Positions 8,612 to 29,067 of a stretch of DNA of 64,000 nt are shown here, one piece after another; within the stretch, counting starts at the first letter, position 1; each line of letters starts with the position of its first letter. Under the pieces are notes generated by a model, which saw nothing but the letters and a program-made list of their open reading frames with translations, had not been told where the DNA came from and ran no database searches. The stretch comes from Acetobacteraceae bacterium (GTDB lineage: Bacteria > Pseudomonadota > Alphaproteobacteria > Acetobacterales > Acetobacteraceae): the NCBI GenBank assembly GCA_032249615.1, contig JAVVHH010000001.1, positions 1,122 to 65,121 on the forward strand. The letters are read 5' to 3'. The position numbers were made by a program, and so were the translations under genes.

Positions 8612-9144
8612 GCGGCGTCTTCGAGCATGCGGACGAACTCCTCCGGTGTCGGCATCGCCGCAGCGTCGAGCGTCTTGGCCGCCACGCGCGGCGCACCTTC
8701 CGTCCACCAGACGCCGGTGTCCCCGCCCGGAGCGCCCCCCGGCTCGCCTAAGCCGTCCAGGGCGGCCTGGAGCGCGGCCGGGGTTCGATCGTCCTCGAGC
8801 GCCGCACGGGCAGTGTCCTCGGCGCCGAGCAGCCAGTTCTCGTCCCGCACCGCCCGCTCACCTTGGAACACCGCCGCAACCGTCAGCGGGAAGTAGCGCC
8901 CCGACGCGTCGACGGACGGCAGCCACAAGCCGAGCACGCCGTCCGGTCCGCACTGGCCGGCCGGCAGCAGGAAGCGCCAGACGGGGGCTTCCAGCCAGGC
9001 GTCTCGCCAAGCGTCCCCCATCTGTTCCCGGCTGAAAGCGAGGACGTTGGAAAGCCAGCGGTCCCACGCCGAGACGAAGCTCCCTGGCAGGCCGCTGCGG
9101 AGGAAGTCGCCGCGGCAGGGCAGCTTGCCGAAGAATCCCGCCAT
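8608..9144 (-). CDS. tagF: T6SS-associated protein TagF (DUF2094/ImpM-like)
   Basis: This is the last 178 aa of track ORF 8608..10884: MAGFFGKLPCRGDFLRSGLPGSFVSAWDRWL..., with the TagF GKLPxxGDF signature. The ATG at 9142-9144 overlaps the tssM stop (ATGA). Confidence 0.85.
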   Translation of the reverse strand: MAGFFGKLPCRGDFLRSGLPGSFVSAWDRWLSNVLAFSREQMGDAWRDAWLEAPVWRFLLPAGQCGPDGVLGLWLPSVDASGRYFPLTVAAVFQGERAVRDENWLLGAEDTARAALEDDRTPAALQAALDGLGEPGGAPGGDTGVWWTEGAPRVAAKTLDAAAMPTPEEFVRMLEDAA

Positions 9145-12100
9145 CACTCGAGCCGCGGGCATGAGAAGCTCTGGAGCAGGCCGGGGCTGAACGGGTTGTT
9201 GACCGACCCGGCGCGGATTTGGAACGTCACCTGCCGGTCGGCGAGATTGTAGCCGAGCTGATACAGCTCCGCGCCGTTCTGCTGCTGCAACTTGCCCTTG
9301 CCGACCATGCGGAACAGCGCCCACGGCCCCGTCGTCTGCAGCCCGGTCGCGCCGGTGGAGAGCGGCGGGTCGAACGTCAGCCGCACGGTGCCCATGCCCT
9401 GCGGACCCGGCCAGGTCACCTGGGTCGCCCGCTCCGGGCCGTGCACGTCGCTGATCGCGATGCCGTTCAGGTCCAGCGTGACTTGCCGCGAGGTAGAGTC
9501 GGAGCTGACGGGCGTGATCTCGAACTTCACCGAAGGCGTGGCGCCGCCGGACGCAAAGAACAGGTCGCGGATCATGGCGGCCCGCTGGAATTGGTCCAGG
9601 TCGGCTTGCGAGATGGGCGGCGCCACGCCAGCCACGGTTTGCAGCTTCCAACCGCCCGCCGCCTGATCGACGAACGCGCGGAGCTGCTGGTTGTAATACG
9701 CGTCCAGCAGCCCGCCCGGCGCGAACAGCTTGCCGAAATCGTCGAGCGGGATGTCGAGCGCGGAATCCGCCTTGAACGGGTAGCGGCCCTCCACCGCTTG
9801 GCGGCACAGGGAGCCGGGGCCGCCAGGTCCGTTGAACGCGGTGGCGGCCTGCTGCTTGGCGCCGGTGCCGCGCAGGCGGTCGGCGGTGGAGGCGAGCGTT
9901 TGCAGCCAGCCGGAGACGGGCGGCGGTTGCCGGAGCGCCTCGGCGCGGAGAAGCTGCGCCGGGTCGGCGCCCGTCGCCGCGACCGCGGGCGCGGCAGCAC
10001 CGGCCGGCGCCGCGGCTAGGGTCGCCAGCTGCTGCTGGAGGTCGTTCAGGAGCTTGAGGGTGATGTCGATGGGCGCACCGGGGCCCTTGCCGACATAGGC
10101 GCGCAAAGCCCGGAAACGGTCGTCGATCGCCTGACCCGGTGGCACCGCCGGCGGCGCGTTTTGGCCGAACAGCGCCGCAGGGCGGGTTGCGGCCGCAGCG
10201 GCGCCGGGAGCCGCTGCCCCGGCCGCGCCTGCAGCGGCCGGAGCGCCCGGCGCCGCGACGGGAGCGGTCAGCGTGAGCTGGTTGGCGATGGAGGTCAGCA
10301 GGTCTTTCAGCGGCGATTGCGGCGAGGAGAGCACGTAGAGGTCCTGGACTGCCGTCTGCAGGTCGCGGAGCGGCCGGATGGCGATGTCGGACAGCATCGC
10401 GTCCCAGCGCTTGGCGTAGTCGTTGGTGTAAAGCGCCACGACGTCGGTCTCGAGGGTCTTCAGCGCCGGGTCGTCGGCCGGATCGACCGCGGCGCCCGTG
10501 CCCAGGACCCAGCTTTCCGAGACCACCTCGCGCGTCGCCGGGGCCAGGGACGGCAGCAGGATCTTGTGGAAGCCGTCGACGGTGTAGAAGCCCGGCACGC
10601 CCTCGGTCAGCGGCTTGCCGGAGGGGCGGACGAACACCGCCGCGCCGGCCCCGCCCAGCGCATCGGCCGGCGTCCAGGGCGGGACCTGCTGGCCGGCGCC
10701 GGGGCGGATTCGGGAGTAGACGCGCTCGGCGAGGCTCACCCGGCTGAACGTGCGCCGGGCTGTCTCGACGAGTTGTCCGTCCAATTCCACGGCGGGCAGC
10801 GGGCCGGCTAGCAGAGCGGTCAGGTGCTCGTCGAGCGTCTTCCGCAAGGGCTCGCGGGTCAGGCCACCATAGGTGCTGGCCCAATCGGCGGCCATCCAGT
10901 CGCGCACCAGGCTGCGGTCGAGCGGGCCTTGGCTGCCTAGCATGAGGTAGATGCGAGTGGCTTCGTAGAGGAACTCGGGCCGGTTCATGGCGCCGCGCAT
11001 CTCCGCCTCGAGCTGCCAGAGCAGCCGGGGCAGCATCACCCAGTCGAGCGCGTGCCGGTAGGTGATCTGTGACGTGGCCGCGAGCTGGGCCGTTTGCGAC
11101 AGGCCCGACCAGCCGGACCGGCCGGCGGCGGCGCCGAAGGGCAAATTGCGCGCTTCGTCGAGCAACGGCAGCACGCGGGGCAGATCGCCGTCGGCCACGG
11201 GATCGAGCGGCAAGCTCGCCGCGATCTGCTGGTAGCGGGCCAGGGAAGCGCTGAGACGGTCGGTGTCGGCTTGGGCGGAGCGGTTCGCGGCCAGGATGAG
11301 GCCCATGGCCCCGAGCGTCACCAGCAGCACCGCCGCGAACGCGCCCGCCCGCATCAGCGAGCGGCGGCGCGCCAGGGCAGGCGGCTCGGAGACGAGCATC
11401 GACTCGCGGAACACGACCTCGCGTAGGAGCCGGTTGACGAAGTAACTGCGGCCTTGCGCCGGGGCGAGGCTGGCCAACCGTTGCGACGGCATGCCGAAGG
11501 CGCGCGCCATGCTGCCGGTCAGCCGGTCGATCGGTGTGCCGTATTGCGTGCCGGACAGGAGATAGAAGCCGCGCAGCAACGGCGCCGGGTCCAAGCGCGT
11601 GCCGCCGAAAGCCGCCGAGAGGAAAGCCTCGAGCGGTTCGGCCAGGCTCGCGACCTGGGCGGGGAAGCCGGCGATCAGCTGCCGCCGGTCCGGGCTCCGC
11701 TCGGCCTGCAGACGGTCGATCACCCGCTCTTCGACCCGCTCCAGCAGACGGGCATGCGCGGCGCGGAACTCGGCGGCCGGGCCCGCGGTATCGCCGCGGC
11801 CCAAGGGGAAGCTTTCGCCCCAGACCTGCTTGCGCTTCTCCGCATCCAGGTCGGCGAAGAACTCGGTGAAACCGGCGATCAGGTCCGCCTTGGTGAACAG
11901 CGCGTAGACCGGCAGCTGCACGCCGAGCTGCGTGTTCAGCTCCTTGATCCGCGCGCGGATGGCTACCGCGTGCGCCTCAGCTGCGGCCCGGTCGGCGACG
12001 ATTTCCGGCACGCTGATCGCTACCAGCACGCCGTTCAGCGGCTGGCGCGAGCGGGTTCGTTTCAGGAGTGCCAGGAAGCCCTGCCAGCCCGCGCGGTCCA

Positions 12101-12653
12101 CCGAGGCATCGCTATCCTGCGTGGTGTAGCGGCCGGCCGTGTCGATCAGAACCGCCTCGTCAGCAAACCACCAATCGCAGAGCCGGGTTCCGCCGACGCC
12201 GGCGACCGCCGCAGGCTTGCCGCCGGGTTCCGTCAGGAAGGTGAGCCCGCTGTTGACGAGCGCCGTGGTCTTGCCCGCGCCGGGCGGGCCGATGATTACA
12301 TACCACGGCTGCTCGTACAAGTAGCCGCGGGTTCCGTGAGCCCGCTTGAGCATCGCGGTGGCGGCCGCGAGCTTATCGTTCAGCGCGGCCACTTCCTCGG
12401 CAGAGGCGTCCGGCCCGGCCGGCGCCGCTACCCCACCCTTGAGCGCCGCCTCGGCGCGTCGGTGGCGGCGGTCGGCCAGCCAATTCGCGACCAACCAGAC
12501 CACGACCAGCAGGACCACGATGCCCAGCCGGATCGGCCACCCCTCCAGAAACGTCAGGAGAGGGCCGAGAAACCACACCAGCAGCGCCAAAAGCAGCACG
12601 CCGAGACCGGTCAGCGTCCAGCGCGAGAGAAGGACCCTTCGAAAGCCAGACAT
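9144..12653 (-). CDS. tssM: T6SS membrane-complex protein TssM (IcmF), full length
   Basis: 1169 aa with an N-terminal TM hairpin, Walker A (IIGPPGAGKTTAL) and Walker B-like VLIDTAGR. A third TM segment, a long periplasmic region and a C-terminal IcmF_C-like domain follow (...GRYPFKADSALDIPLDDFGKLFAPGG...). Confidence 0.95.
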   Translation of the reverse strand: MSGFRRVLLSRWTLTGLGVLLLALLVWFLGPLLTFLEGWPIRLGIVVLLVVVWLVANWLADRRHRRAEAALKGGVAAPAGPDASAEEVAALNDKLAAATAMLKRAHGTRGYLYEQPWYVIIGPPGAGKTTALVNSGLTFLTEPGGKPAAVAGVGGTRLCDWWFADEAVLIDTAGRYTTQDSDASVDRAGWQGFLALLKRTRSRQPLNGVLVAISVPEIVADRAAAEAHAVAIRARIKELNTQLGVQLPVYALFTKADLIAGFTEFFADLDAEKRKQVWGESFPLGRGDTAGPAAEFRAAHARLLERVEERVIDRLQAERSPDRRQLIAGFPAQVASLAEPLEAFLSAAFGGTRLDPAPLLRGFYLLSGTQYGTPIDRLTGSMARAFGMPSQRLASLAPAQGRSYFVNRLLREVVFRESMLVSEPPALARRRSLMRAGAFAAVLLVTLGAMGLILAANRSAQADTDRLSASLARYQQIAASLPLDPVADGDLPRVLPLLDEARNLPFGAAAGRSGWSGLSQTAQLAATSQITYRHALDWVMLPRLLWQLEAEMRGAMNRPEFLYEATRIYLMLGSQGPLDRSLVRDWMAADWASTYGGLTREPLRKTLDEHLTALLAGPLPAVELDGQLVETARRTFSRVSLAERVYSRIRPGAGQQVPPWTPADALGGAGAAVFVRPSGKPLTEGVPGFYTVDGFHKILLPSLAPATREVVSESWVLGTGAAVDPADDPALKTLETDVVALYTNDYAKRWDAMLSDIAIRPLRDLQTAVQDLYVLSSPQSPLKDLLTSIANQLTLTAPVAAPGAPAAAGAAGAAAPGAAAAATRPAALFGQNAPPAVPPGQAIDDRFRALRAYVGKGPGAPIDITLKLLNDLQQQLATLAAAPAGAAAPAVAATGADPAQLLRAEALRQPPPVSGWLQTLASTADRLRGTGAKQQAATAFNGPGGPGSLCRQAVEGRYPFKADSALDIPLDDFGKLFAPGGLLDAYYNQQLRAFVDQAAGGWKLQTVAGVAPPISQADLDQFQRAAMIRDLFFASGGATPSVKFEITPVSSDSTSRQVTLDLNGIAISDVHGPERATQVTWPGPQGMGTVRLTFDPPLSTGATGLQTTGPWALFRMVGKGKLQQQNGAELYQLGYNLADRQVTFQIRAGSVNNPFSPGLLQSFSCPRLE

Positions 12654-17281: not shown

Positions 17282-17572
17282 CTATCCAATCAGCACGGTA
17301 AAGCAGCCGAGCACGATCGTGCCGCCGTGCGCACACATGTCGCCCATCCGCGCGGCGGGCGTACCCCCGATCAACACGGTGAAGGACCCGAGAGCGATGG
17401 TGTCGGGCGGGCCGACGCACGTCGCCATGTCGCCCACACGCGCTGCGGGCAGCGAGCCGATGAGCACGGTCGGCGCTCCTGGCGGCAGGATGGGTCCGCC
17501 CACGTGCGGCACAATTCCGGTCACCATGGGGCAGACGTGCATGTCGGTGATGCGCGCGGCCGGCTGACCCAT
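17282..17572 (-). CDS. PAAR-domain spike-tip protein
   Basis: 96 aa with three PAAR-like repeats (QPAARITDM, LPAARVGDM, TPAARMGDM). The ATG overlaps the stop of the upstream gene (ATGA at 17570-17574). Confidence 0.92.
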   Translation of the reverse strand: MGQPAARITDMHVCPMVTGIVPHVGGPILPPGAPTVLIGSLPAARVGDMATCVGPPDTIALGSFTVLIGGTPAARMGDMCAHGGTIVLGCFTVLIG

Positions 17573-18162
17573 CAGTTCGCCTCCGGAGCCATGCGCCCGG
17601 GCCCACCCATGCCGATATCGCGGGCACTGGCCAGGAAGCGGCGGAGCCGGTCGGCTCGGCGCTCCGGAAAATCCCGCACCGAGGCCAGCGCAACCGCGCC
17701 GGCCACCGCGTTGGCGGCGACATGGTCCGGCGGCGCCACGGGCGCTTGGCCCACCGGGGCGAGGCTGTCACCGCTCCAGAACGCGCCCACCGCAGCCCAG
17801 GCCTCCGGGCTGTTGAAGCCGGCTTCCCCGGCATGGGCGAAGGCTGCGCGCCGCACCTCGTCGCTCTGCACCCGCACCCAGGTCTCGGCCGCTTCCAGCG
17901 CGGCGCGGTCGGCGGCGGGGAGCCCGGCCGGTGCGGTTGCGCGGGCGCACATGCACGCCCACCACACGGCTTCGCGACGCGGCAGCGCATGCGCCACCAG
18001 TCGCGTCGCCTCGACCAGCAGTTCCGCTGCGGCGAGATGATCGAGGGCGGCTTGGGTGCTCCGAATGCCCGCGATCTGCTCCGCCGCGGCGGGGGGAAGG
18101 CCCAGCCGCGGCAGCAGGGCCGCCACGTTGTCGTTGAGTTTGGTGGCGATCGATCCCGACAT
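17572..18162 (-). CDS. Hypothetical protein wedged between vgrG and PAAR (candidate T6SS accessory or adaptor; function unknown)
   Basis: 196-aa ORF with gene-like codon usage. It starts 4 nt after the vgrG stop and overlaps the PAAR start. There is no signal peptide or TM segment. I cannot place it in DUF4123, DUF2169 or DUF1795 by eye. Confidence 0.75.
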   Translation of the reverse strand: MSGSIATKLNDNVAALLPRLGLPPAAAEQIAGIRSTQAALDHLAAAELLVEATRLVAHALPRREAVWWACMCARATAPAGLPAADRAALEAAETWVRVQSDEVRRAAFAHAGEAGFNSPEAWAAVGAFWSGDSLAPVGQAPVAPPDHVAANAVAGAVALASVRDFPERRADRLRRFLASARDIGMGGPGRMAPEAN

Positions 18163-18166
18163 GGCG

Positions 18167-20107
18167 CTAGTTGATCATCGTGATGCCGCCCTTGAGGGTC
18201 AGCATCCCGTCGCCGTTCACCGTCGTCATGGGCGCCTTCACGTCCGTTTTTATGCTGCCCTCAATGGACACCTGGAGACCTTTCACCTCGATGCCACTCT
18301 GGCTGATCGTGATCGTGTTGCTGCCGACCTTCAGGGTGATCGACTGCAGCGCCTCCATCGAGATCGCCCCGCTGCTCACTTTGACGGTGAGGTCGCCAGC
18401 ATCGACGGTGAGCTTGTCTCCGCTGGCATTGATCGTCGTGGTGCGGCCGTTCTTGATCGTGTTGGTCTGTGAGTCGTCGACTTCGATCGTTTCTTTCTGC
18501 TTGACCGTGTGCGTGCGGTTGTTGTCGACCGTCAGCGTCTGGTCGTGCTTGACCTCGATCTTCTGGTCGTTCTCGACCTCGACCGTCATGTCCTTCTCGG
18601 CATGCGCGAAGAACAGCTCGGAGCCTTTGGTGTCGTCGAAGCTCAGCTCGGAGAAAGTCGACTTGTCGCCCGTCTTGGTCGAGCGGGTGCGCAGACCGCT
18701 CTTGTTCTGCTCATCCGGCACCGCGAACACCGGTTGCATGGTGCCGTTGTAGAGCCCGCCCAAGACGACCGGCCGGTCGGGATCGCCGTCCATGAAGCTG
18801 ACCGCGACCTCGGTACCGACACGCGGCAGGTGCTGCCAGCCCCAGGTGTTCCCCGCCCAAGGCTGCACCACCCGGGCCCACACGGCCTTGTCCGAGCTGG
18901 TGTCGCCGCGATGATCGAAGAACAGCATCACCTTGACGCGGCCCATGCTGTCGGCGTGGATCTCCTCGCCGTCCGCCCCGAGCACGATGGCGGCGTAGAC
19001 GCCCGCCATCACCGGACGGGGCGTGGTCATCGGCTCGCGCCAGGGGGTCGCCGCCGGCAGCGCGGATAACTCATTCGAGTAGGTGGCGACGCCCGCGTTA
19101 TTCACCCAACTATTGTCTTGTCCCTGATGCGTGATCCGGCGCACCACGTAATCCATGTCCTCGTCGCCGTTGAACGGATCGCGAAGGACCGTGAGTCGGG
19201 TGCCTGCGGATAAAAGGTTATTTTGACTCGCTCCGTCGCGTAACGACACCGCGGCCTCGGCAGCTTCCAACATATATTTCGCCTGCCGCGTGATTTCGGC
19301 GGAGACAAAGGACAGGGCGGGCCAGCGGAACACATCTCGCTTGGACGCACCGCTCGTTTCCAGGGTCGTCGCCTGCTGTTTGGTGAGGTCGGTGCCGGGC
19401 TTGGCCGGGTCGTAGTCCTTGAGCTGGAGTTGGCCGTAGGTGGTCGCGTGGGATTTGCGCCAGTCGGTCAATACGTCCGCGTTGCCACCCTCGTAGATCA
19501 CGGCCAGGGTCGGCTTCGGTTGAGTGGGAAAACCGCTGTTTTGGTCGGTCACCACCATCGTGTGATCGCTGTTGGTGTGTTCGAAATGGAAGTGATAGCC
19601 CTCGGCTTCCATCAACCGGCGCAGGAAATCGAGATCGGTTTCGTTGTACTGCGTCACATATTCCTTGGCCGTTGTACTGCCGTAGGTCTTGAGCGTCAGT
19701 GTTTGGCCGATTTCGGCGCAAATCGATTGGACGATGTTCGCAACTGGCAGGTTTTGAAAAATCCGGCAATCCATCGTCTGGGAGAGGAACCAGAAGCGGG
19801 GCACAATCTCGAGCGTGTAGGCCCAATGGTCGCGGATGGGCCGCCCGTTCCCGGAGAACGCCCGCACGAGACCATGAAAGTAACGATCGTCGAGATCCCC
19901 CCGCACGGTCAGACAAGCCGCGTTGTAGAGCACAGTGTCGGGATCGATGGAGGCTTCGGTCGAGACGGCTTCGACAACGACGGTGAATGGCTCGCCGATC
20001 GCCTCGTCAGCCCGGAACGCGACGGGGATGAGAACATCGTCTCCTAACGCCGTCGTGAGCGCGAGCAGGCGTTTGCCTCCCGCCGCTCCTCCTGATGCGC
20101 CCGACAT
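18167..20107 (-). CDS. vgrG: T6SS spike protein VgrG (TssI), no C-terminal effector extension
   Basis: About 646 aa: ...LLALTTALGDDVLIPVAFRADEAIGEPFTVVV... (gp27-like), then gp5-like beta-helix repeats (TLTVDNNRTHTVKQKETIEVDD...). The likely ATG at 20107 is preceded by AAGGAG; the track's first codon at 20110 is TTG. Confidence 0.93.
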   Translation of the reverse strand: MSGASGGAAGGKRLLALTTALGDDVLIPVAFRADEAIGEPFTVVVEAVSTEASIDPDTVLYNAACLTVRGDLDDRYFHGLVRAFSGNGRPIRDHWAYTLEIVPRFWFLSQTMDCRIFQNLPVANIVQSICAEIGQTLTLKTYGSTTAKEYVTQYNETDLDFLRRLMEAEGYHFHFEHTNSDHTMVVTDQNSGFPTQPKPTLAVIYEGGNADVLTDWRKSHATTYGQLQLKDYDPAKPGTDLTKQQATTLETSGASKRDVFRWPALSFVSAEITRQAKYMLEAAEAAVSLRDGASQNNLLSAGTRLTVLRDPFNGDEDMDYVVRRITHQGQDNSWVNNAGVATYSNELSALPAATPWREPMTTPRPVMAGVYAAIVLGADGEEIHADSMGRVKVMLFFDHRGDTSSDKAVWARVVQPWAGNTWGWQHLPRVGTEVAVSFMDGDPDRPVVLGGLYNGTMQPVFAVPDEQNKSGLRTRSTKTGDKSTFSELSFDDTKGSELFFAHAEKDMTVEVENDQKIEVKHDQTLTVDNNRTHTVKQKETIEVDDSQTNTIKNGRTTTINASGDKLTVDAGDLTVKVSSGAISMEALQSITLKVGSNTITISQSGIEVKGLQVSIEGSIKTDVKAPMTTVNGDGMLTLKGGITMIN

Positions 20108-20131
20108 CAATCACTCCTTCGCTTGCGCGCC

Positions 20132-20185: not shown

Positions 20186-20545
20186 TTAGCTCTCCGGGAC
20201 GCTGGCTGCCGCATACCAGTCGGCCAAGCTGGCAAATTCCGCATCCAGTTCCGAACCGGGCATCGCACCGTCGTGGACGATGATGACGGATCCTTTGGGC
20301 CGATGCGGGTCCCGCGTCACGACGCAGGCCACGTCGTCCCGGTCACCACGGCGTGCGAAAGGCAGGACGTCACGGCCCGGGAACTGCTCGGCCAGCGAAT
20401 CACGGTTGGCGACGGCGTTGCGCTCGGCCAGCATCCACCAGGGCCCGAACTCGCGTTCGATCGTCTCCAATTTTGCAGCGGTCTCGCTGGGCACATCGAC
20501 GCCGCGAAATTTCAGGGCGGGCACGAACCAGTCGAAGAAGCTCAC
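20186..20545 (-). CDS. Candidate immunity protein, SUKH (SMI1/KNR4)-like by motif resemblance
   Basis: 119 aa from GTG 20545, which overlaps the effector stop (TAGTG). The sequence reads MSFFDWFVPALKF...VLPFARRGDRDDVACVVTRDPHRPKGSVIIVHDGAMPGSELDAEFASLADWY. This resembles the SUKH C-terminal pattern (small acidic loop, C/V core, ...V..DH.., F.S..DW). The longer 173-aa track ORF overlaps the upstream gene and is Arg/Pro-rich there. Confidence 0.6.
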   Translation of the reverse strand: MSFFDWFVPALKFRGVDVPSETAAKLETIEREFGPWWMLAERNAVANRDSLAEQFPGRDVLPFARRGDRDDVACVVTRDPHRPKGSVIIVHDGAMPGSELDAEFASLADWYAAASVPES

Positions 20546-21843
20546 TATTTGGGTCCTGGAAGGGAGGGCGGGGTCAGTGTGCCGGTCGGCCCGAGCGGTG
20601 GGATCTGCCGGCTGGTCCGGTACGCGAGTGCCTCGCCCCAAGTCTGGCTCGGTCCGAAACGGGCGCTGTCGAGCATAGCCTGCGGCAACGGATCTCCCGG
20701 TTCCCAAATCCGGACAGGGATCGATGGTATGCCCTGTTCGCGCGCCACCGCAACGCGGGTGTTGTCGAGCGAGACCACTCCGTCAGGGATGCGCACGGCG
20801 TCGATCGGTGGGCCGTTCCAACCGTTCTCCGCCATCGAACGCCGAAGCGCGTCGGCGCGATTGTTGCCGCCCGCGCTGTTCTGGCTGAAGCGGACTTCCT
20901 TTGGATCGAGGTTTTCGACCGTCTGGCCAGGGCCGACGGCGCGGGCACTCGGAGCGCCACCGCCAGCACGCGATCGGCCTCCTCCTCCTCCAGTGCGGCT
21001 GGTCGTCTCTCCGGTGGACCTTGCCGATCCGGTGCCGCCGTAATCCGACGTTCTGCGGGCCGCGCGGGTGATGAAGATGGTCAAGAACGCCAAGCCCAGC
21101 ACCACGAAGGCGTCCGCCAGGTCTTTTGCCGCCGTGTCGAGATCGGCGTCGTTCTTGGCCGTCGTGGCGTCCGCCGCGGCAGCGGCCATTTGGTAGAGCG
21201 CCCGCACGCCGGCCAGTCCGGCGATGCCGTAAGCGATCCCGGCCAGGACCACGTCCGCAGCCTCGCCGTAGCCGAAGAATTGCGCCGCAGCCAGGCCGGC
21301 GAACGCGGCGACGGTGAGGCCGATCGAAGTGGGCGAGATGAGCTGGAGGAACGCTTCCTTCAGCGGCCCGGACAGATATTTCGGCACCAGCCGCAGCGCC
21401 GCTTCGACGCGCTCGGCATGCGACATGTCGCGCACCGCCTTGGCTTTCGCCGCCGCGACGGTCGGCCCCGGGGCGGCCGGCCCCGGCGCGGCCGCTGGCT
21501 TGAACCCGCTCGCGACCCGGATGTCCGGATCGATCGCGTGTGGGAAATACGCGACCGTGAGACGATGCGACGCAACCGCTGCATTCAGCAGATCGATCAT
21601 GTGCCGTTCCGACAGGCGCTCCGGCGCACCGGGCAGGCCGAGGCGGCGCCAGGCGCTGCGCAGGGTGGCGACGGCGCGCGGGTCGCGAAGCAGGGGCCGT
21701 AGCCGCTCGCCGGCATGCGCGCGGAAGGCGGTCGCTGCCGCGACCGACCCGAACGCGGCCGGCGGCGCCAGCACCAGCGTGCCGCCCGGCAACGGGATCG
21801 CGCACTCCGCCCGGGGCCGCGCGATGGCGATGCTAGTGGTCAA
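20545..21843 (-). CDS. Candidate T6SS effector: unknown N-domain, three TM helices, G/S/R-rich linker, and a C-terminal ParB/Srx-like (predicted nuclease) toxin domain
   Basis: 432 aa. The TM helices are ISPTSIGLTVAAFAGLAAAQFF, VVLAGIAYGIAGLAGVRALY and AFVVLGLAFLTIFIT. The linker reads GGTGSARSTGETTSRTGGGGGRSRAGGGAPS. The C-terminal domain reads LDPKEVRFSQNS...LRRSMAENGWNGPPIDAVRIPDGVVSLDNTRVAVAREQGIPSIPVRI, which are ParB-like motifs. Confidence 0.6.
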   Translation of the reverse strand: MTTSIAIARPRAECAIPLPGGTLVLAPPAAFGSVAAATAFRAHAGERLRPLLRDPRAVATLRSAWRRLGLPGAPERLSERHMIDLLNAAVASHRLTVAYFPHAIDPDIRVASGFKPAAAPGPAAPGPTVAAAKAKAVRDMSHAERVEAALRLVPKYLSGPLKEAFLQLISPTSIGLTVAAFAGLAAAQFFGYGEAADVVLAGIAYGIAGLAGVRALYQMAAAAADATTAKNDADLDTAAKDLADAFVVLGLAFLTIFITRAARRTSDYGGTGSARSTGETTSRTGGGGGRSRAGGGAPSARAVGPGQTVENLDPKEVRFSQNSAGGNNRADALRRSMAENGWNGPPIDAVRIPDGVVSLDNTRVAVAREQGIPSIPVRIWEPGDPLPQAMLDSARFGPSQTWGEALAYRTSRQIPPLGPTGTLTPPSLPGPK

Positions 21844-22740: not shown

Positions 22741-25431
22741 ATGCGTGCCGGCAGAAACGCCCTCATGCTCAACCTTCTCATCAGCTTCGTCGGCGTTGCC
22801 CTCCTGGCGGTCTTGGTCTGGTTCCTCGGGCCGTTGGTGCCATGGCTGGATGGGGTCGTCGTGCGCGGGGCGATCTGCCTCGTTCTGCTCCTGGTCTGGG
22901 CCGGTTACGCGGTCTGGACGGTCGTGCGCTGGCGGAAGCAGGGCCGCGAGCTCGAGCGCGGCCTCGTCGCCGCGGCCGCCGCCGAAGAGGTCGGCGCCAT
23001 CCAGGAGCGGTTCGCCGCGGCGATCGCCACGCTGCGGCAAGCCGGCTCCCTCCATTCGCAGCCGTGGTATGTCATCATCGGCCCGCCCGGCGCGGGCAAG
23101 ACGACGGCGCTGCTCAACGCGGGCTTGAGTTTCCCGTTCGCCGGGAAGGCGGGCGGCGCCCACCTGGCCGGCGTCGGCGGGACCCGGGATTGCGACTGGT
23201 GGTTCACCGACGAGGCCGTGCTGATCGACACCGCCGGCCGCTACACGACCCAGGACAGCGACGGCGTCGCCGACAGCGCGGGGTGGGGCGCCTTTCTCGA
23301 CCTGCTGCGGCGCACCCGGCCGCGCCAGCCGCTGAACGGGATCATCGTCGCAATCCCGGCGGTCGAAATCGCCGGCGTTCCCCAAGCGCTGCGCAGCGCC
23401 CATGCCCGCGCGGTCCGCGAGCGCGTGGAGGAACTCAACGGCAAGCTCAAAACCGACCTGCCGGTCTATCTGCTATTTACCAAAGCCGACTTGCTCGCGG
23501 GCTTCACCGAGTTCTTCGACGATCTGGACGCGGAGAGGCGGGGCCAGGTCTGGGGCACCACCTTTCCGCTCAGCCGCCGGCCGCTGCCAGTGCCAGATAC
23601 CGGCAAGGCGCTGGAAGCCTTGGTCGCTCGGCTCGATGAGCGCGTGATCGACCGGCTGCAGGCCGAGCGCAGCCCAGAGCGCCGGCGGCTGATCGCCGGA
23701 TTTCCCACCCAGGTGGCAAGCTTGGTCCCGCTGCTCAGCAGCTTCGTGGAAGAGGCTTTCGGCGGCCACAAGCTGCGCCAGGCGCCGCTCCTGCGCGGCA
23801 TCTACCTGACCTCAGGCACCCAATCCGGCACGCCGGTCGATCGGCTGACCGCGGTGCTGGCGCGCTCCTTCGCGCTCGCGCCCGCCCGCCTGGCCAGCCT
23901 GCGCCCGGAGAAGGGGCGGAGCTACTTCCTGCATCGCCTGATGAGCGACGTGCTGCCGGGCGAGGCCATGTTGGTCTCCTCCCGCCCGGAAATCGTCCGC
24001 CGCCGCAGGCTACTGCGCGGCGCCGGCTACGCGGGCACCCTGCTGGCCACCGCAGCCGCCTGCGCCGCGATCTGGCATGTGCGCGCCGGCAATCTCCAGG
24101 CGCAAGCCGCCGTGGCGCAAGCGCTCTCCGCCCAGGCCGCCGAGGCAGCGCGCCTGCCGCTCGACCCGGTCGCCGACACCGACGCGTTGCGCCTGCTTCC
24201 GTTGCTGGATCAAGCGCAGGCGATGCCGTTACGGACGGCGGTGGAATCGCAGGGTAACCTGCTGGATCAGGACGCCACGCTGGGCGAGATCAGCCGCACC
24301 ACCTACCGCCTCGCCCTGCAACGCGACTTGCTGCCGCGATTGCTGCGGCGGCTCGAGGCGCAGCTCGCCGCGTCCTCCGACCGGCCGGAGGACGCCTACA
24401 ACGCGACCAGGGTTTATCTCATGCTGGGTGGCGCCGGGCCGCTCGATCCGGCGCTGGTGCGGAACTGGTTGCAGCAGGACTGGAACGAGCGCTGGGGCGG
24501 GGCGGCGCAGCAGCGGCAGCGCGATCAACTCGCCCAGCACCTCGACGCGCTCCTCGCGGCGCCGCTGCCTGCCGTCGAGTTGGACGGCGCGCTGGTGGAC
24601 CGCGCCCGTGCCGTGTTCAATCGCGTGTCGCCGGCCGCCCGCGTCTACAGCCGCATCCGCTCCTCCGCCGCCGGGCAAGCAGTTCCGCCCTGGCGCCCGC
24701 GCAGCGCGATGGGGCCGCTCGGCAGCGCCCTGTTCACGGTGAAATCCGGCCGCTCGCTCGACGACGGAGTGCCCGGCCTGTTCACGCCCGCCGGCTACTA
24801 CGACGCCTTCCTGCCCGCGATCGCGCCCACGATCCGCGCCGTCGCCGCCGAGAGTTGGGTGACCGGCAACCCGGTCAAGGCAGACGACGACTCCGCCCGC
24901 CTGGCCGCGATCGAGCAGGAGGTCGACGGGCTCTATCGGGCGGACTTCATCCGCACTTGGGACGGCTTCCTCGACGACCTGCAGTTCACGCCGTTCCGCA
25001 GCGTCGCCCAGGCCGCGCAGGACCTGTACGTGCTGACGTCGCCGCAATCGCCGATCAGGCAGATTCTGGGAAGCATCGCGCTTCAGGTGAGCCTGCCTCC
25101 GCCGCAGGGCGTGGCGGCCGCGCCCAAGCTGCCGGGTCAGCCGTCGCGTGCGTCCGGCCCCGCCGCCGCGATTGCCGCGCATTACCGGCCCCTGATCGAT
25201 CTGGTGGGGCAAGGCCCGGGCGCGCCGCTCGATCAAGCGCTCCGGTCGCTGACCGACCTCCAGCAGTGGTTGGCCAAGCTCGCGGCCGCAGCCATCAACG
25301 TCCCGGCGCCTTCGCCCGGCACCACCGACCCGGCCGCCGCCCTCAGTACAGAAGCGCAACGCTGGCCCGAACCGTTGCGTCGCTGGTTCATGACAATGGC
25401 CGACTCAGCGGCAGCGCTCAGGCCCAAGTAG
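22741..25431 (+). CDS. TssM (IcmF) paralogue lacking the C-terminal IcmF_C/TssJ-binding domain
   Basis: 896 aa, collinear by eye with residues 1 to about 895 of the tssM product at 9144-12653. Shared blocks include VLVWFLGPL, PWYVIIGPPGAGKTTAL, AVLIDTAGRYTTQDSD, VIDRLQAERSP.RR.LIAGFP and DLYVL.SPQSP. It ends at ...RRWFMTMADSAAALRPK, where the full-length protein continues for about 270 aa. An AAGGAG RBS lies 11 nt before the ATG. Confidence 0.9.
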   Translation: MRAGRNALMLNLLISFVGVALLAVLVWFLGPLVPWLDGVVVRGAICLVLLLVWAGYAVWTVVRWRKQGRELERGLVAAAAAEEVGAIQERFAAAIATLRQAGSLHSQPWYVIIGPPGAGKTTALLNAGLSFPFAGKAGGAHLAGVGGTRDCDWWFTDEAVLIDTAGRYTTQDSDGVADSAGWGAFLDLLRRTRPRQPLNGIIVAIPAVEIAGVPQALRSAHARAVRERVEELNGKLKTDLPVYLLFTKADLLAGFTEFFDDLDAERRGQVWGTTFPLSRRPLPVPDTGKALEALVARLDERVIDRLQAERSPERRRLIAGFPTQVASLVPLLSSFVEEAFGGHKLRQAPLLRGIYLTSGTQSGTPVDRLTAVLARSFALAPARLASLRPEKGRSYFLHRLMSDVLPGEAMLVSSRPEIVRRRRLLRGAGYAGTLLATAAACAAIWHVRAGNLQAQAAVAQALSAQAAEAARLPLDPVADTDALRLLPLLDQAQAMPLRTAVESQGNLLDQDATLGEISRTTYRLALQRDLLPRLLRRLEAQLAASSDRPEDAYNATRVYLMLGGAGPLDPALVRNWLQQDWNERWGGAAQQRQRDQLAQHLDALLAAPLPAVELDGALVDRARAVFNRVSPAARVYSRIRSSAAGQAVPPWRPRSAMGPLGSALFTVKSGRSLDDGVPGLFTPAGYYDAFLPAIAPTIRAVAAESWVTGNPVKADDDSARLAAIEQEVDGLYRADFIRTWDGFLDDLQFTPFRSVAQAAQDLYVLTSPQSPIRQILGSIALQVSLPPPQGVAAAPKLPGQPSRASGPAAAIAAHYRPLIDLVGQGPGAPLDQALRSLTDLQQWLAKLAAAAINVPAPSPGTTDPAAALSTEAQRWPEPLRRWFMTMADSAAALRPK

Positions 25432-26045: not shown

Positions 26046-27536
26046 GTGTCGGCAACGCAATCCACTCCGGAATCGGCCGCGGCCGAAACCGTCGAAGGCA
26101 CGAACCTCCTCGACCAGGTCCTTTCGGCGACCAAGCAGACAGCGCCCGATCATGCGCAAGACCTCGTCAAGACGCTGGTCGAACAGGCGCTCGACGGCAC
26201 CGTCACCTTCGACCGCAACCTCACCCGGACCTTTGCGCGCGCGATCGAAGCCATCGACCGCAAGATGTCGGTCCAGCTGAACGCGGTGATGCACGACCCT
26301 AAATTCGTCAAGCTGGAAGGGTCGTGGCGGGGGCTGCACTACCTCGTCATGAACAGCGAGACCAGCACGTCGCTCAAGATCCGCATGATCAACGTGAGCA
26401 AGCGCGAGCTCAACCGCGACCTGACCAAGGCGGTGGAATTCGATCAGAGCCAGCTGTTCAAGAAGATCTACGAGAACGAGTTCGGCACCCCCGGTGGCGA
26501 GCCTTATGGCGCTTTCATCGGCGACTACGAGTGGACCAACCACCCCGACGACATCGAGACGTTGCGCTTGATGTCGAACGTGTCGGCCGCCGCCTTCGCC
26601 CCGTTCCTATCCGCCGCCAGCTCGCAAATGTTCGGTTTCGACGATTGGACTGAGCTGACCAAGCCGCGCGACCTCGCCAAGATCTTCGACACCAGCGAAT
26701 ACATGAAGTGGCGCTCCTTCCGTGACAGCGAGGACAGCCGCTTCGTTTCGCTCGTCATGCCGCGGGTCATCTCCCGCCTTCCCTACGGCGCGGCAACCAA
26801 GCCGATCGACGAGTTCGGCTACGAGGAAGCACCGGCCGATGCGGCCGGGGCCGCCAAGCCGATGGGGCATGGCGAATATTGCTGGATGAACGCCGCCTTC
26901 GTGATGGGCGCGCGCATGACGGACGCCTTCGCGAAATACGGCTTCTGCACCATGATCCGCGGCGCCGAGGGCGGCGGCAAGGTCGAGAACCTGCCGACGC
27001 ACCTGTTCCAGTCGGATGACGGCGATACCGACACGAAGTGCCCGACCGAAATCGGCATCACCGACCGGCGCGAATTCGAGCTCTCCAACCTCGGCTTCCT
27101 GCCGCTCTGCCACTACAAAAACACCGACTACGCCGTCTTCTTCGGCGGCCAGACGGTGCAGAAGCCCAAGAAATACGACCGTCCGGACGCAACCGCCAAC
27201 GCCGCGATCTCCGCCCGGCTGCCCTACATCATGGCGACGGCCCGCTTCGCGCACTACCTCAAGGTCATGGGCCGCGACAAGATCGGGTCGTTCATGGAAG
27301 CGACCGATTGCGAGAAGTGGCTGAACCGCTGGATCGGCAACTACGTCAACGGCAACGAAGCGGCCGGCGCCGAAGCAAAGGCGAAGTATCCGCTGCGCGA
27401 GGCCCGCGTCGAGGTAAAGGAAATCCCCGGCAAGCCCGGTTCCTACAATGCGGTCGCCTATCTCCGCCCCTGGCTCCAAATGGAGGAGTTGACCACCAGC
27501 CTGCGGATGGTGGCGCGCATCCCCGAAAAGGCCTGA
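26046..27536 (+). CDS. tssC: T6SS contractile sheath large subunit TssC (VipB/ImpC)
   Basis: 496 aa with a GTG start; ...[21 protein letters not shown]...[24 protein letters not shown]... Confidence 0.95.
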
Positions 27537-27552: not shown

Positions 27553-29067
27553 ATGGAAAGGCTAGCCGACGCGCCGGCTGAGGACGTCCTCCCGCCATTG
27601 CGGGACGAGGTTTTGGCCGGCCGTTTCTTCGGCCCCCGCGCGGCCGAAGCAACCCACCGCCTCGCCGGCCTGATCGCCGGCGCCTCGGTGTTCCAAACGC
27701 TAAACGAGTGGTTCGGCATGGCGAGGACGGCGGCGCTGGCCGTGTCCCCCGAACACCTGCGCGGCGCCCTCGACCGGGATATCGCCGCGATCGACGACCT
27801 CATCGGCGCGCAACTCGACGCCGTGCTGCACCATCCGCGCTTCGCGGCCATGGAGGGCAGGTGGCGTGGGCTCGATTGGCTCCTGCACAGCTATGATTCC
27901 GGCGCGCGCATCAAGGTGCGATTGCTCACAGTGACTTGGTCCGAGCTCGCTCGCGACCTCGATCGGGCGGCCGAGTTCGATCAGAGCCAAGTGTTCCAGC
28001 GCGTCTACGAGGACGAGTTCGGCATGCCGGGCGGTGAGCCGTTCGGCCTTCTGCTGATCGATCACGAGGTGCACCACCTCGCCGGGCCCGGCGGCGACAA
28101 CGTCTCTACGATCAAGCTGCTGGCGGCGGTCGCCGCGGCCGCCTTCGTGCCGATCGTCCTGCCCGCCTCGCCCCGTCTGCTCGAGGTCGACGGCTTTTCC
28201 GATCTGGCCTATTCGCAGCAGCCCGCTTCGCCGTTGCGGGCACCGAGCCATGCGCGGTGGCGGAGCTTGCGGCGCCATGAGGACATGCGCTTCATCTGCG
28301 TCGCGCTGCCTCGGCTGCTCGCTCGCACCACTTGGCGGGATGACCCGGCGCGCCACGACGGTTTCCGCTACGTCGAATACGCGCCAGACTCCGAGAGCCA
28401 TTGCTGGATGTCCGCCGGCTTCGCTTTCGCCTCCTGCGTCGCGCGCGCCTTCGCCGCGTTCTCGTGGCCAGCCGACGTGCGCGGGGTCGAGGTCGATCGC
28501 GAAGCCGGCGGCGTCGTGCTCGGCCTCCCCGTCGAGACCGACGCGACTGGCCACTGGGCACGGTCCGCGCTCGAGCTCGTGCTGACCGACGGACAGGAAC
28601 GGGACCTGATCGATGCGGGGCTGATGCCGGTCTGCGGCCTGCCCTTCAGCGAGGAGGCGACGTTCAGCGCCGTCCGCAGCCTGCAGGAGCCGGCGCGGTT
28701 GAACACGGAACTCGCGACCGCCAACGCCCACGTGTCGGCGCAAATCAACTCCATGCTCTGCGTGGGCCGTTTTGCACATTACATAAAAGTAATGGGCCGC
28801 GACATGGTCGGCTCGATGATGACTGCGGACGTCATCGAGCGCCGGCTGCAGAAATGGCTCGACAATTACGTCAATGGCAACGCAATCGCCACGCGCGACA
28901 GCCGCGCCAAGGCTCCGCTGACCGCCGGGCGGGTGACGGTTACCGAACGCCTGGGCAAGCCGGGCGTGTTCGGCTGCGTCGTGCACCTGCAGCCGCACTT
29001 TCAACTAGACGACGTGTCGACGACGTTTCGTCTCGTGACCGACTTGGCCGCCCCGGGCGGCCGTTAA
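27553..29067 (+). CDS. Second TssC-family paralogue (ImpD-like)
   Basis: 504 aa; ...VLHHPRFAAMEGRWRGLDWLL...FDQSQVFQRVYEDEFGMPGGEPFG... is parallel to, but diverged from, tssC. Confidence 0.9.
   Translation: MERLADAPAEDVLPPLRDEVLAGRFFGPRAAEATHRLAGLIAGASVFQTLNEWFGMARTAALAVSPEHLRGALDRDIAAIDDLIGAQLDAVLHHPRFAAMEGRWRGLDWLLHSYDSGARIKVRLLTVTWSELARDLDRAAEFDQSQVFQRVYEDEFGMPGGEPFGLLLIDHEVHHLAGPGGDNVSTIKLLAAVAAAAFVPIVLPASPRLLEVDGFSDLAYSQQPASPLRAPSHARWRSLRRHEDMRFICVALPRLLARTTWRDDPARHDGFRYVEYAPDSESHCWMSAGFAFASCVARAFAAFSWPADVRGVEVDREAGGVVLGLPVETDATGHWARSALELVLTDGQERDLIDAGLMPVCGLPFSEEATFSAVRSLQEPARLNTELATANAHVSAQINSMLCVGRFAHYIKVMGRDMVGSMMTADVIERRLQKWLDNYVNGNAIATRDSRAKAPLTAGRVTVTERLGKPGVFGCVVHLQPHFQLDDVSTTFRLVTDLAAPGGR

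Follow-up and report, generated by a model that had tools for sequence, protein, structure and literature searches.

Two overlapping genes upstream of vgrG

We analyzed a 64,000-nucleotide stretch of DNA from an Acetobacteraceae bacterium (assembly GCA_032249615.1, contig JAVVHH010000001.1, positions 1,122 to 65,121), here called the window, with a focus on two adjoining minus-strand genes at 20186..21843 that probably encode a type VI secretion system (T6SS) effector and its immunity protein. The first gene (20545..21843) starts with TTG, stops with TAG at 20547-20545 and encodes a putative polymorphic effector of 432 amino acids with database homologues P0002-P0017. The second gene (20186..20545) starts with GTG at 20545-20543 and encodes a 119-amino-acid protein that we place in the SUKH (SMI1/KNR4) superfamily. 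The effector stop and the immunity start have one base in common in the sequence TAGTG (20547 to 20543; the minus strand reads CCC AAA TAG TGA GC), and an AGGA lies 8 nucleotides upstream of the GTG. The two ORFs and their TAGTG overlap, together with three hydrophobic helices, a linker and a compact C-terminal domain in the larger protein and a vgrG gene next to the pair, had been described in an initial annotation of this DNA, and each was found in its place.

Both open reading frames (ORFs) were taken as true coding sequence and not as high-GC noise, because their guanine-plus-cytosine (GC) content at third codon positions was 0.76 to 0.87 and homologues were clear for both. On the same grounds, and with homologues aligned from the first residue, a spurious high-GC ORF was rejected. 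The TTG start of the effector was backed by six homologues that align from residue 1, and the start of the 119-amino-acid ORF was consistent with homologues P0019 and P0020. Third-position GC was 0.76 to 0.78 in the toxin domain and immunity gene (20186-20928, minus strand) versus 0.82 to 0.88 in the flanking T6SS genes, a dip that fits a recently acquired cassette. The 119-amino-acid protein was 100% identical to a protein of an Acetobacteraceae metagenome-assembled genome. Pfam and NCBIfam scans gave no family match for the 432-amino-acid protein (Pfam, E ≤ 1) and, for the smaller protein, no family at E ≤ 1 except a chance match at 0.14.

A carrier with exchangeable C-terminal domains

The database search divided the 432-amino-acid protein into two halves. 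Homologues P0002-P0007 matched residues 1-263 with 44 to 64% identity and diverged completely past the last helix, where they ended in two unknown domains, a deaminase-like domain (called by eye from HAE...PVCxxC motifs) and a DUF6883 domain, all unrelated to the toxin domain of the window. Homologues P0008-P0017 matched only residues from about 305 to 432, and their N termini, RHS among them, were unrelated to that of the effector. The downstream gene followed the C-terminal domain: the same toxin domain was followed by a homologue of the 119-amino-acid protein, while other C termini were followed by unrelated genes, a pattern typical of polymorphic toxins. The two translated small genes downstream of the homologues in L001 and L002, two assemblies with the same gene arrangement as the window, were related neither to the 119-amino-acid protein nor to each other. 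These results show that one N-terminal module serves several different toxin domains at a constant site of the T6SS cluster.

The N-terminal soluble region (residues 1-134, 21442..21843, minus strand) was kept only in Acetobacteraceae-type relatives, had no PDB or Pfam match and is a candidate for the part that docks on the spike. The N terminus reads MTTSIAIARPRAECAIPLPGG and departs from the prePAAR motif (AARxxDxxxH). A prePAAR effector was considered and rejected, with no such motif, no PAAR domain and no adjoining Eag gene. The effector likewise had none of the PAAR, MIX, FIX, Rhs or DUF4123 loading features in a Pfam scan, and the operon contained no gene for a DUF4123, DUF2169 or DUF1795 adaptor.

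The region that follows (residues 135-263, 21055..21441, minus strand) is a conserved membrane module that includes AVRDMSxxER followed by ISPTS...FFGYGEAxD, together with three hydrophobic helices. The hydrophobic maxima were centered at residues 173-183, 204-208 and 247-255 (Kyte-Doolittle, 19-residue window), the module contains the glycine-zipper-like stretch GIAYGIAGLAG, and its conserved core can be written ISPTS...GHFxGYGEAxD. The module is not represented in Pfam, NCBIfam or the PDB, and a profile search of the PDB with the N-terminal module gave no significant match; this three-helix carrier module is previously undescribed. A metagenome scan with the whole N-terminal module found nothing, and a later scan restricted to the helices found distant relatives with 31 to 40% identity and other N and C termini in three contigs (L085-L087). 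One of these relatives ends in an HExxH C terminus. Another (L087, 5317-7629) carries a PG_binding_1 domain at its N terminus, has an unknown C terminus and is followed by a pentapeptide-repeat protein that may be its immunity protein.

Behind the module, and just after the sequence RAARR/K at which the similarity to the N-module relatives stops, lies a Gly/Ser/Arg/Thr-rich linker (residues 264-305, 20929..21054, minus strand); residues 263-306 (44 amino acids) include 14 Gly, 7 Arg, 6 Ser and 6 Thr.

A different role for the three helices, as a pore-forming weapon or as an anchor in the inner membrane of the producer instead of a translocation device, has to be weighed at this point. Pore-forming T6SS effectors exist, the GIAYGIAGLAG stretch resembles a glycine zipper, the module is conserved where the C termini vary, and the distant module relatives lie away from T6SS genes. 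These points are countered by the immunity side of the cassette, since the module is not paired with any conserved immunity gene for a membrane protein and the only adjoining small gene varies with the C-terminal domain. A variable C-terminal domain behind a flexible linker was also always present, which is the pattern of a delivery module. We therefore regard a pore or anchor as improbable.

The toxin domain has a predicted ParB/Srx fold

The C-terminal toxin domain, a 125-amino-acid domain of the Tox-ParBL1-like type (residues 306-432, 20548..20928, minus strand), was modeled with AlphaFold2 from 40 diverse sequences at a predicted local distance difference test score (pLDDT) of 93.4. All of the top 50 Foldseek matches in the PDB were ParB/Srx proteins, with probabilities of 0.96 to 1.00 and E values from 8.9e-5 to 4e-2; the best template modeling (TM) score was 0.63, normalized to the Srx target. 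The matches included ParB-CDP (6sdk, E 8.9e-5), sulfiredoxin, PadC, KorB, Noc, SbnI and free serine kinase, and ParB/Srx structures among them were deposited with CDP, CTP analogues, ADP, ATP or AMP bound. The ParB/Srx-like fold proposed in the initial annotation was thus borne out by the model.

Conservation was counted over 141 family members. The R-F-S-Q motif (residues 318-321, 20881..20892, minus strand) is located between strand 2 and helix 1 in the model and is followed by an AGGxxR loop (residues 324-329). In these two elements, R318 was present in 123/141 sequences, S/T320 in 140/141, Q321 in 139/141, A324-G-G326 in 133-135/141, and the G and R of x-G-R329 in 119/141 and 120/141, respectively. 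The D-N-T-R motif (residues 360-363, 20755..20766, minus strand) opens the second helix (model H68-76); D360 was invariant (141/141), the next position was N361 in 87/141 and His in 54/141 (38%), and T362 and R363 were each present in 140/141. Further conserved positions were D348 (136/141), R395, T401, W402 and G403 (137-139/141), R409 (137/141) and Q413 (129/141). The FSQ and DNTR motifs that the earlier reading had picked out for mutation therefore coincide with the most conserved positions of the family.

The DNTR motif was in register with GERR of ParB, GCHR of Srx and DGVHR of SbnI. For ParB and Srx this correspondence came from hhalign alignments with hand-entered sequences of Spo0J and human Srx, used for residue correspondence only; the match with Srx was weak and in register. 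The glutamine after strand 2 probably corresponds to the glutamine of the ParB QPR motif; the alignments stopped short of that region. The most conserved residues of the toxin thus fall in motifs that match phosphate-binding motifs, including the glycine-rich AGGxGR loop.

Nucleotide-dependent chemistry or nuclease

We prefer a nucleotide-dependent chemistry for the toxin over nuclease activity, because solved ParB/Srx structures among the fold matches are nucleotide-bound, the conservation falls in phosphate-binding-type motifs and the ParB "nuclease" label is historically unsound. ParB itself has been reinterpreted as a CTP-dependent switch. The label is called historically erroneous in PMC3482391. 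The nuclease explanation, which follows the nuclease-type toxin of the initial annotation and in which the domain would degrade prey DNA or RNA with metal and no nucleotide cofactor, is a serious alternative that we nevertheless hold to be well short of even odds. DNase activity is reported for the ParB/Srx protein Osa and for plant sulfiredoxin. The immunity protein, being cytoplasmic and acidic, resembles many nuclease inhibitors. Zhang et al. 2012 (PMC3482391) argue that toxins with a ParB fold may be nucleases, as nucleases dominate the polymorphic toxin repertoires. Against a nuclease stand the erroneous label and, additionally, the CDP, CTP analogues, ADP, ATP or AMP deposited with the matching structures and the placing of the top conserved residues in phosphate-binding-type motifs with the AGGxGR loop. 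The partner does not decide the matter either: SUKH proteins are listed also as partners of proteases, deaminases and DOC toxins (PMC3482391), so a SUKH partner says little about the target of the toxin. Overall, a nucleotide-dependent chemistry is at least as likely as nuclease activity.

A large toxin family on many carriers

An exhaustive profile search placed the toxin domain in a family of at least 1035 clusters at 50% identity, and in 140 of 158 matches the domain ended 10 residues or fewer from the C terminus. A Pfam scan of family members matched no model in any toxin domain. The carriers were RHS, PT-HINT, filamentous haemagglutinin/DUF637, SpvB/TcdB, Mu portal, LXG, PT-VENN and gonococcal MafB proteins, and the hosts included Streptococcus suis, Listeria, Enterococcus, Bacillus, Pseudomonas, Burkholderia, Ralstonia and Pectobacterium, with the LXG carriers in Bacillus and Listeria. 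The toxin domain is therefore a transferable cassette. One family member of 1122 amino acids (P0021) carries three tandem copies of the domain, at residues 10-140, 143-276 and 290-429. In Brevibacillus ruminantium (L004, 6001-8038), the domain ends an RHS fragment in an array of orphan cassettes made of an RHS tip and a small gene.

The 119-amino-acid protein is the probable cognate immunity protein

We scanned genomes, one per species, with a nine-sequence toxin alignment and kept the best 80 loci, which span Acetobacteraceae, Planctomycetota, Streptomyces, Pseudomonas, Enterococcus, Listeria, Bacillus, Streptococcus, Pectobacterium, Aeromonas and others. A homologue of the 119-amino-acid protein began a few bases after the toxin stop in 66 of the 80 loci. 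Among the other 14, four Planctomycetota loci (L007, L009, L011 and L013) had a second small downstream family of about 110 amino acids, and two loci (L021 and L022) had a third small downstream family in common. The Planctomycetota family (...RIDSDDVLFE...YAVVHLTWSG) looked SUKH-like by eye. In L004 the downstream gene encoded an unrelated 220-amino-acid protein outside the SUKH family. This co-occurrence, together with the switch of the downstream gene with the C-terminal domain, bears out the effector-immunity pairing that had been proposed for the two genes.

When 54 members of the immunity family were scanned, PF09346 (SUKH-1) matched 10 of them (best 1.7e-7), SUKH_6 matched 6 and SUKH_5 matched 4, and many database relatives of the 119-amino-acid protein bear the SMI1/KNR4 name in NCBI or UniRef. 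The AlphaFold2 model of the immunity protein had a pLDDT of 92, and its top Foldseek match was the SMI1/KNR4 protein BF1740 (3d5p; probability 0.99, TM 0.55/0.50, E only 1.5e-2), with Syd (3ffv) lower in the list. PDB profile searches with the toxin and immunity alignments gave nothing significant. The calculated isoelectric point (pI) was 4.7 for this acidic protein and 8.5 for the toxin domain. Family membership and the model together identify the 119-amino-acid protein as a predicted SUKH-family protein, in agreement with the SUKH-like call made earlier, and as the probable cognate immunity protein of the toxin domain.

Relation to Tox-ParBL1, ParB/Srx enzymes and MafB

The pair resembles a predicted family. 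Zhang et al. 2012 (PMC3482391) described Tox-ParBL1 as a predicted ParB fold with a conserved N-terminal Ser/Thr and an [NT][RT][RT] motif; they listed Imm-SUKH partners, MafB and type V, VI and VII secretion system carriers, and gave NGK_2271, a MafB of Neisseria gonorrhoeae, as the prototype. The window has S320 and N361-T362-R363, the N-T-R being equivalent to DGHHR, and a SUKH gene directly downstream, and the family shares RHS, haemagglutinin, HINT, LXG and MafB carriers with Tox-ParBL1. The differences are that 38% of the present family has His and not Asn/Thr at the first motif position and that the carrier in the window is a new module absent from the PMC3482391 list. The description of Tox-ParBL1 is computational only. 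The initial annotation had called the pair uncharacterized, which holds for experiments and does not hold for the domain pairing, predicted as Tox-ParBL1/Imm-SUKH in 2012.

A gonococcal mafA-mafB-mafI locus was found by tblastn (L088, NZ_CP119142.1 1817800-1824129). Its MafB C terminus (SFSQ...DNTR...TWGEA) matched the toxin profile in hhalign with 98.8% probability (E 9e-17; identity with NGK_2271 not confirmed), and its MafI matched the immunity profile with 98.6% probability. The replicon, of 2.17 Mb, is given as a plasmid of Neisseria gonorrhoeae in PLSDB with 17 annotated features, and the maf locus in it is unannotated. The only solved MafB toxin that we found, in the MafB2 structure paper, has an RNase A fold and is unrelated. 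We filed the pair under Tox-ParBL1/Imm-SUKH, which it fits, the prototype accession not being confirmed and the first motif position being His in 38%.

The core fold of the toxin, as modeled, is in common with ParB/Srx enzymes and switches, that is, the CTP-binding ParB, Noc, KorB and PadC, the ATP phosphotransferase sulfiredoxin and the serine kinases SerK and SbnI, and DNTR opens the second helix in the place of GERR, GCHR or DGxHR. In contrast to these proteins, the toxin has no DNA-binding or dimerization domains, and a family-specific C-terminal extension (RFG...TWGEA...R...Q...G...P) takes the place of the ParB box III region. The domain also differs from them in its probable use: it would be secreted as a toxin and kept in check by an inhibitor.

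The pair lies in a complete T6SS cluster

Genes for glucosaminidase, effector, immunity, vgrG, DUF6931, PAAR, tagH, tssJ, tssK, tssL and tssM follow one another in this order along the minus strand, and on the plus strand a TssM paralogue without the C-terminal domain is followed by sheath and baseplate genes; the pair is thus located in a complete T6SS cluster. The VgrG spike protein (18167..20110, minus strand) is encoded directly downstream of the pair and matched TIGR03361 at 2e-139 as well as Phage_GPD, Phage_base_V and Gp5_trimer_C. It is followed by a 196-amino-acid DUF6931 protein (17572..18162, minus strand; PF22011 at 1.9e-45) and a stand-alone PAAR protein of 96 amino acids (17282..17572, minus strand; PF05488 at 5.8e-27). 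The DUF6931 gene has the same position in L001 and L002, where vgrG is likewise followed by DUF6931 and PAAR. Searches of PDB and NCBIfam with the DUF6931 protein gave no match, and the literature search found one paper that names the family, in passing only; speculatively, it is a candidate adaptor or chaperone. The genes between 15.4 and 22.7 kb encode, besides the effector, glucosaminidase, immunity protein, VgrG, DUF6931, PAAR, TagH and TssJ, with no DUF4123, DUF2169 or DUF1795 neighbor among them.

The order glucosaminidase, N-module effector, variable small gene and vgrG was also found in L001 and L002, and L089 most likely has the same order, its truncated fourth gene not being identified. 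The T6SS cluster setting, which the initial annotation had claimed, therefore recurs in three other assemblies, in L089 most likely. The earlier claim on loading fared less evenly. PAAR, MIX, Rhs and DUF4123 features are indeed absent from the effector; the suggestion that its loading would lie outside the described routes stood less well, since the spike is conventional, with a stand-alone PAAR and with DUF6931 after vgrG, and the docking route of the effector may or may not be new.

The setting also allows a reading in which the pair is not T6SS cargo at all, being an orphan cassette or the cargo of another route that lies in the cluster by chance. The same toxin-immunity pair does occur as an orphan beside transporter genes (L003), the effector has no recognized T6SS loading domain, and the module relatives in L085-L087 do not adjoin T6SS genes. 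Several features of the locus oppose this. In four assemblies the site between the glucosaminidase gene and vgrG stays the same as the toxin domain swaps; the effector gene overlaps both of its neighbors and forms one operon with vgrG, PAAR and tagH-tssJKLM; and inspection revealed neither a signal peptide nor any other signal for secretion. We consider chance placement the most improbable of the alternatives.

The overlap upstream is with a glucosaminidase gene (PF01832; 21833..22567, minus strand; probable 244-amino-acid form), whose stop overlaps the TTG start of the effector by 11 nucleotides and whose orthologues of 244 to 246 amino acids have the same position in L001, L002 and L089. The N-terminal region of the protein is PG-binding-like, a signal peptide was not apparent by eye, and no immunity gene adjoins. 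The enzyme could act on the cell wall as an effector delivered together with the toxin, or it could serve in assembly. A role as an Eag-like chaperone was rejected, as it is an ordinary PF01832 enzyme.

Two further features of the cluster were observed. It contains two TssM genes, at 22741-25431 (plus strand, 896 amino acids) and 9144-12653 (minus strand, 1169 amino acids); the shorter protein is 50% identical to the longer and is without the last approximately 240 residues (IcmF_C domain). Because orthologues of 896 and 906 amino acids occupy the same place in L001 and L002, the shorter TssM is a conserved paralogue and not a truncation artifact. The sheath large-subunit genes are in tandem, at 26046-27536 and 27553-29067 (both plus strand), and each matched VipB and VipB_2 (5e-133 and 5e-89).

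Comparison with T6SS effectors that cross membranes

The effector shares hydrophobic, glycine-rich helices upstream of a cytoplasm-acting toxin with the Tse6-EagT6 type of effectors with prePAAR and transmembrane domains (Ahmad et al. 2020, PMC7773334). It differs from them in the absence of prePAAR, PAAR and an adjoining DUF1795 (Eag) gene, PAAR being a separate 96-amino-acid protein, and in the position of the helices, which are internal (residues 166-262) and not N-terminal. Tde1 of Agrobacterium is an Ntox15 DNase loaded by a DUF4123 adaptor (Tap-1). Like the effector in the window, it is an alphaproteobacterial T6SS cargo, with a glycine-zipper-like stretch proposed to let the toxin cross the prey membrane (Ali et al. 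2023, PMC10240207); the window, in contrast, has no DUF4123, and its helices form a conserved module of 130 amino acids.

The closest comparison for the toxin itself is P0013 (L090), which has the same toxin domain (approximately 55 to 65% identity) and a downstream SUKH immunity gene in a vgrG-PAAR island and which differs in an unrelated N-terminal region and in the presence of an FHA-DUF4123 adaptor gene. Because the same pair occurs in this vgrG-PAAR-DUF4123 island, the toxin cassette is independent of the loading route. The immunity homologue of P0013 lies at 6710-7327 of L090, where the source assembly has no gene call for it. A 118-amino-acid gene upstream of P0013 was considered as the immunity gene and rejected as unrelated, the uncalled downstream ORF being the homologue.

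Proposed mechanism and its standing

We read the two genes as a T6SS-linked polymorphic toxin with its cognate immunity protein, at a probability of roughly 0.7. In the proposed mechanism, the N-terminal region would dock the effector on the VgrG/PAAR spike, and DUF6931 may assist or shield the helices. After firing into the prey periplasm, the helices would insert in the inner membrane, and the linker and toxin domain would pass to the cytoplasm, by analogy with Tse6-type effectors (PMC7773334) and Tde1 (PMC10240207). There, the R-x-S/T-Q and D-N/H-T-R motifs and the AGGxGR loop would form a nucleotide-binding pocket of the ParB/Srx type for the toxin to use. The chemistry we favor, at somewhat less than even odds, depends on nucleoside triphosphate (NTP): the toxin would transfer a phosphoryl group or hydrolyze NTP, and its target would be a nucleotide, a nucleic acid or a protein. 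The chief competing chemistry, that of a simple metal-dependent DNase, is less probable. In the producer, the acidic SUKH protein would bind and block the toxin domain.

Several points weigh against this reading, in one or another of its parts. On the side of delivery, T6SS genes are absent from the 6 kb around the module relatives in L085-L087, and no chaperone for the hydrophobic helices was identified, the role of DUF6931 being a guess. The syntenic contexts count as one line of evidence and not four, as they come from close relatives that are not independent for T6SS loading. On the side of the toxin, the fold call rests on one AlphaFold2 model and Foldseek E values of 1e-4 to 1e-2. The link to ParB by sequence was not significant: Pfam ParBc gave no match at E ≤ 1, the best ParB/Srx match in an hmmsearch of the PDB was SbnI at E 1.6, and hhalign with the hand-entered Spo0J sequence gave a weak match, in register, of 27% probability (P 6.6e-4). 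The mild basicity of the toxin domain (pI 8.5) favors neither DNA nor a nucleotide as the substrate. Finally, in literature searches that covered ParBL1, ParB-like T6SS effectors, MafB with ParB, and T6SS effectors of Acetobacteraceae, no experimental study of the family turned up.

A bolder version of the reading makes two separate claims, that the toxin is a nucleotide-dependent ParB/Srx enzyme (a kinase or an NTP-consuming enzyme) and not a nuclease, and that the three-helix "GYGE" module is a self-translocation and loading module independent of PAAR and Eag. We regard this version as doubtful.

Significance

The pair is a new member of the predicted Tox-ParBL1/Imm-SUKH family, which is large and without a Pfam model and for which our literature search found no biochemical study. 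The compact 125-amino-acid toxin and its inhibitor form a tractable system for asking which activity the ParB/Srx fold takes on under selection for killing. The carrier, which has internal helices and lacks PAAR, prePAAR and Eag, adds an example to the question of how a cytoplasm-acting T6SS cargo stays soluble, loads and crosses the inner membrane of the prey. If the toxin is nucleotide dependent, it would be the first interbacterial toxin with such chemistry, in a family that extends from Acetobacteraceae to gonococcal MafB and the LXG toxins of Firmicutes.

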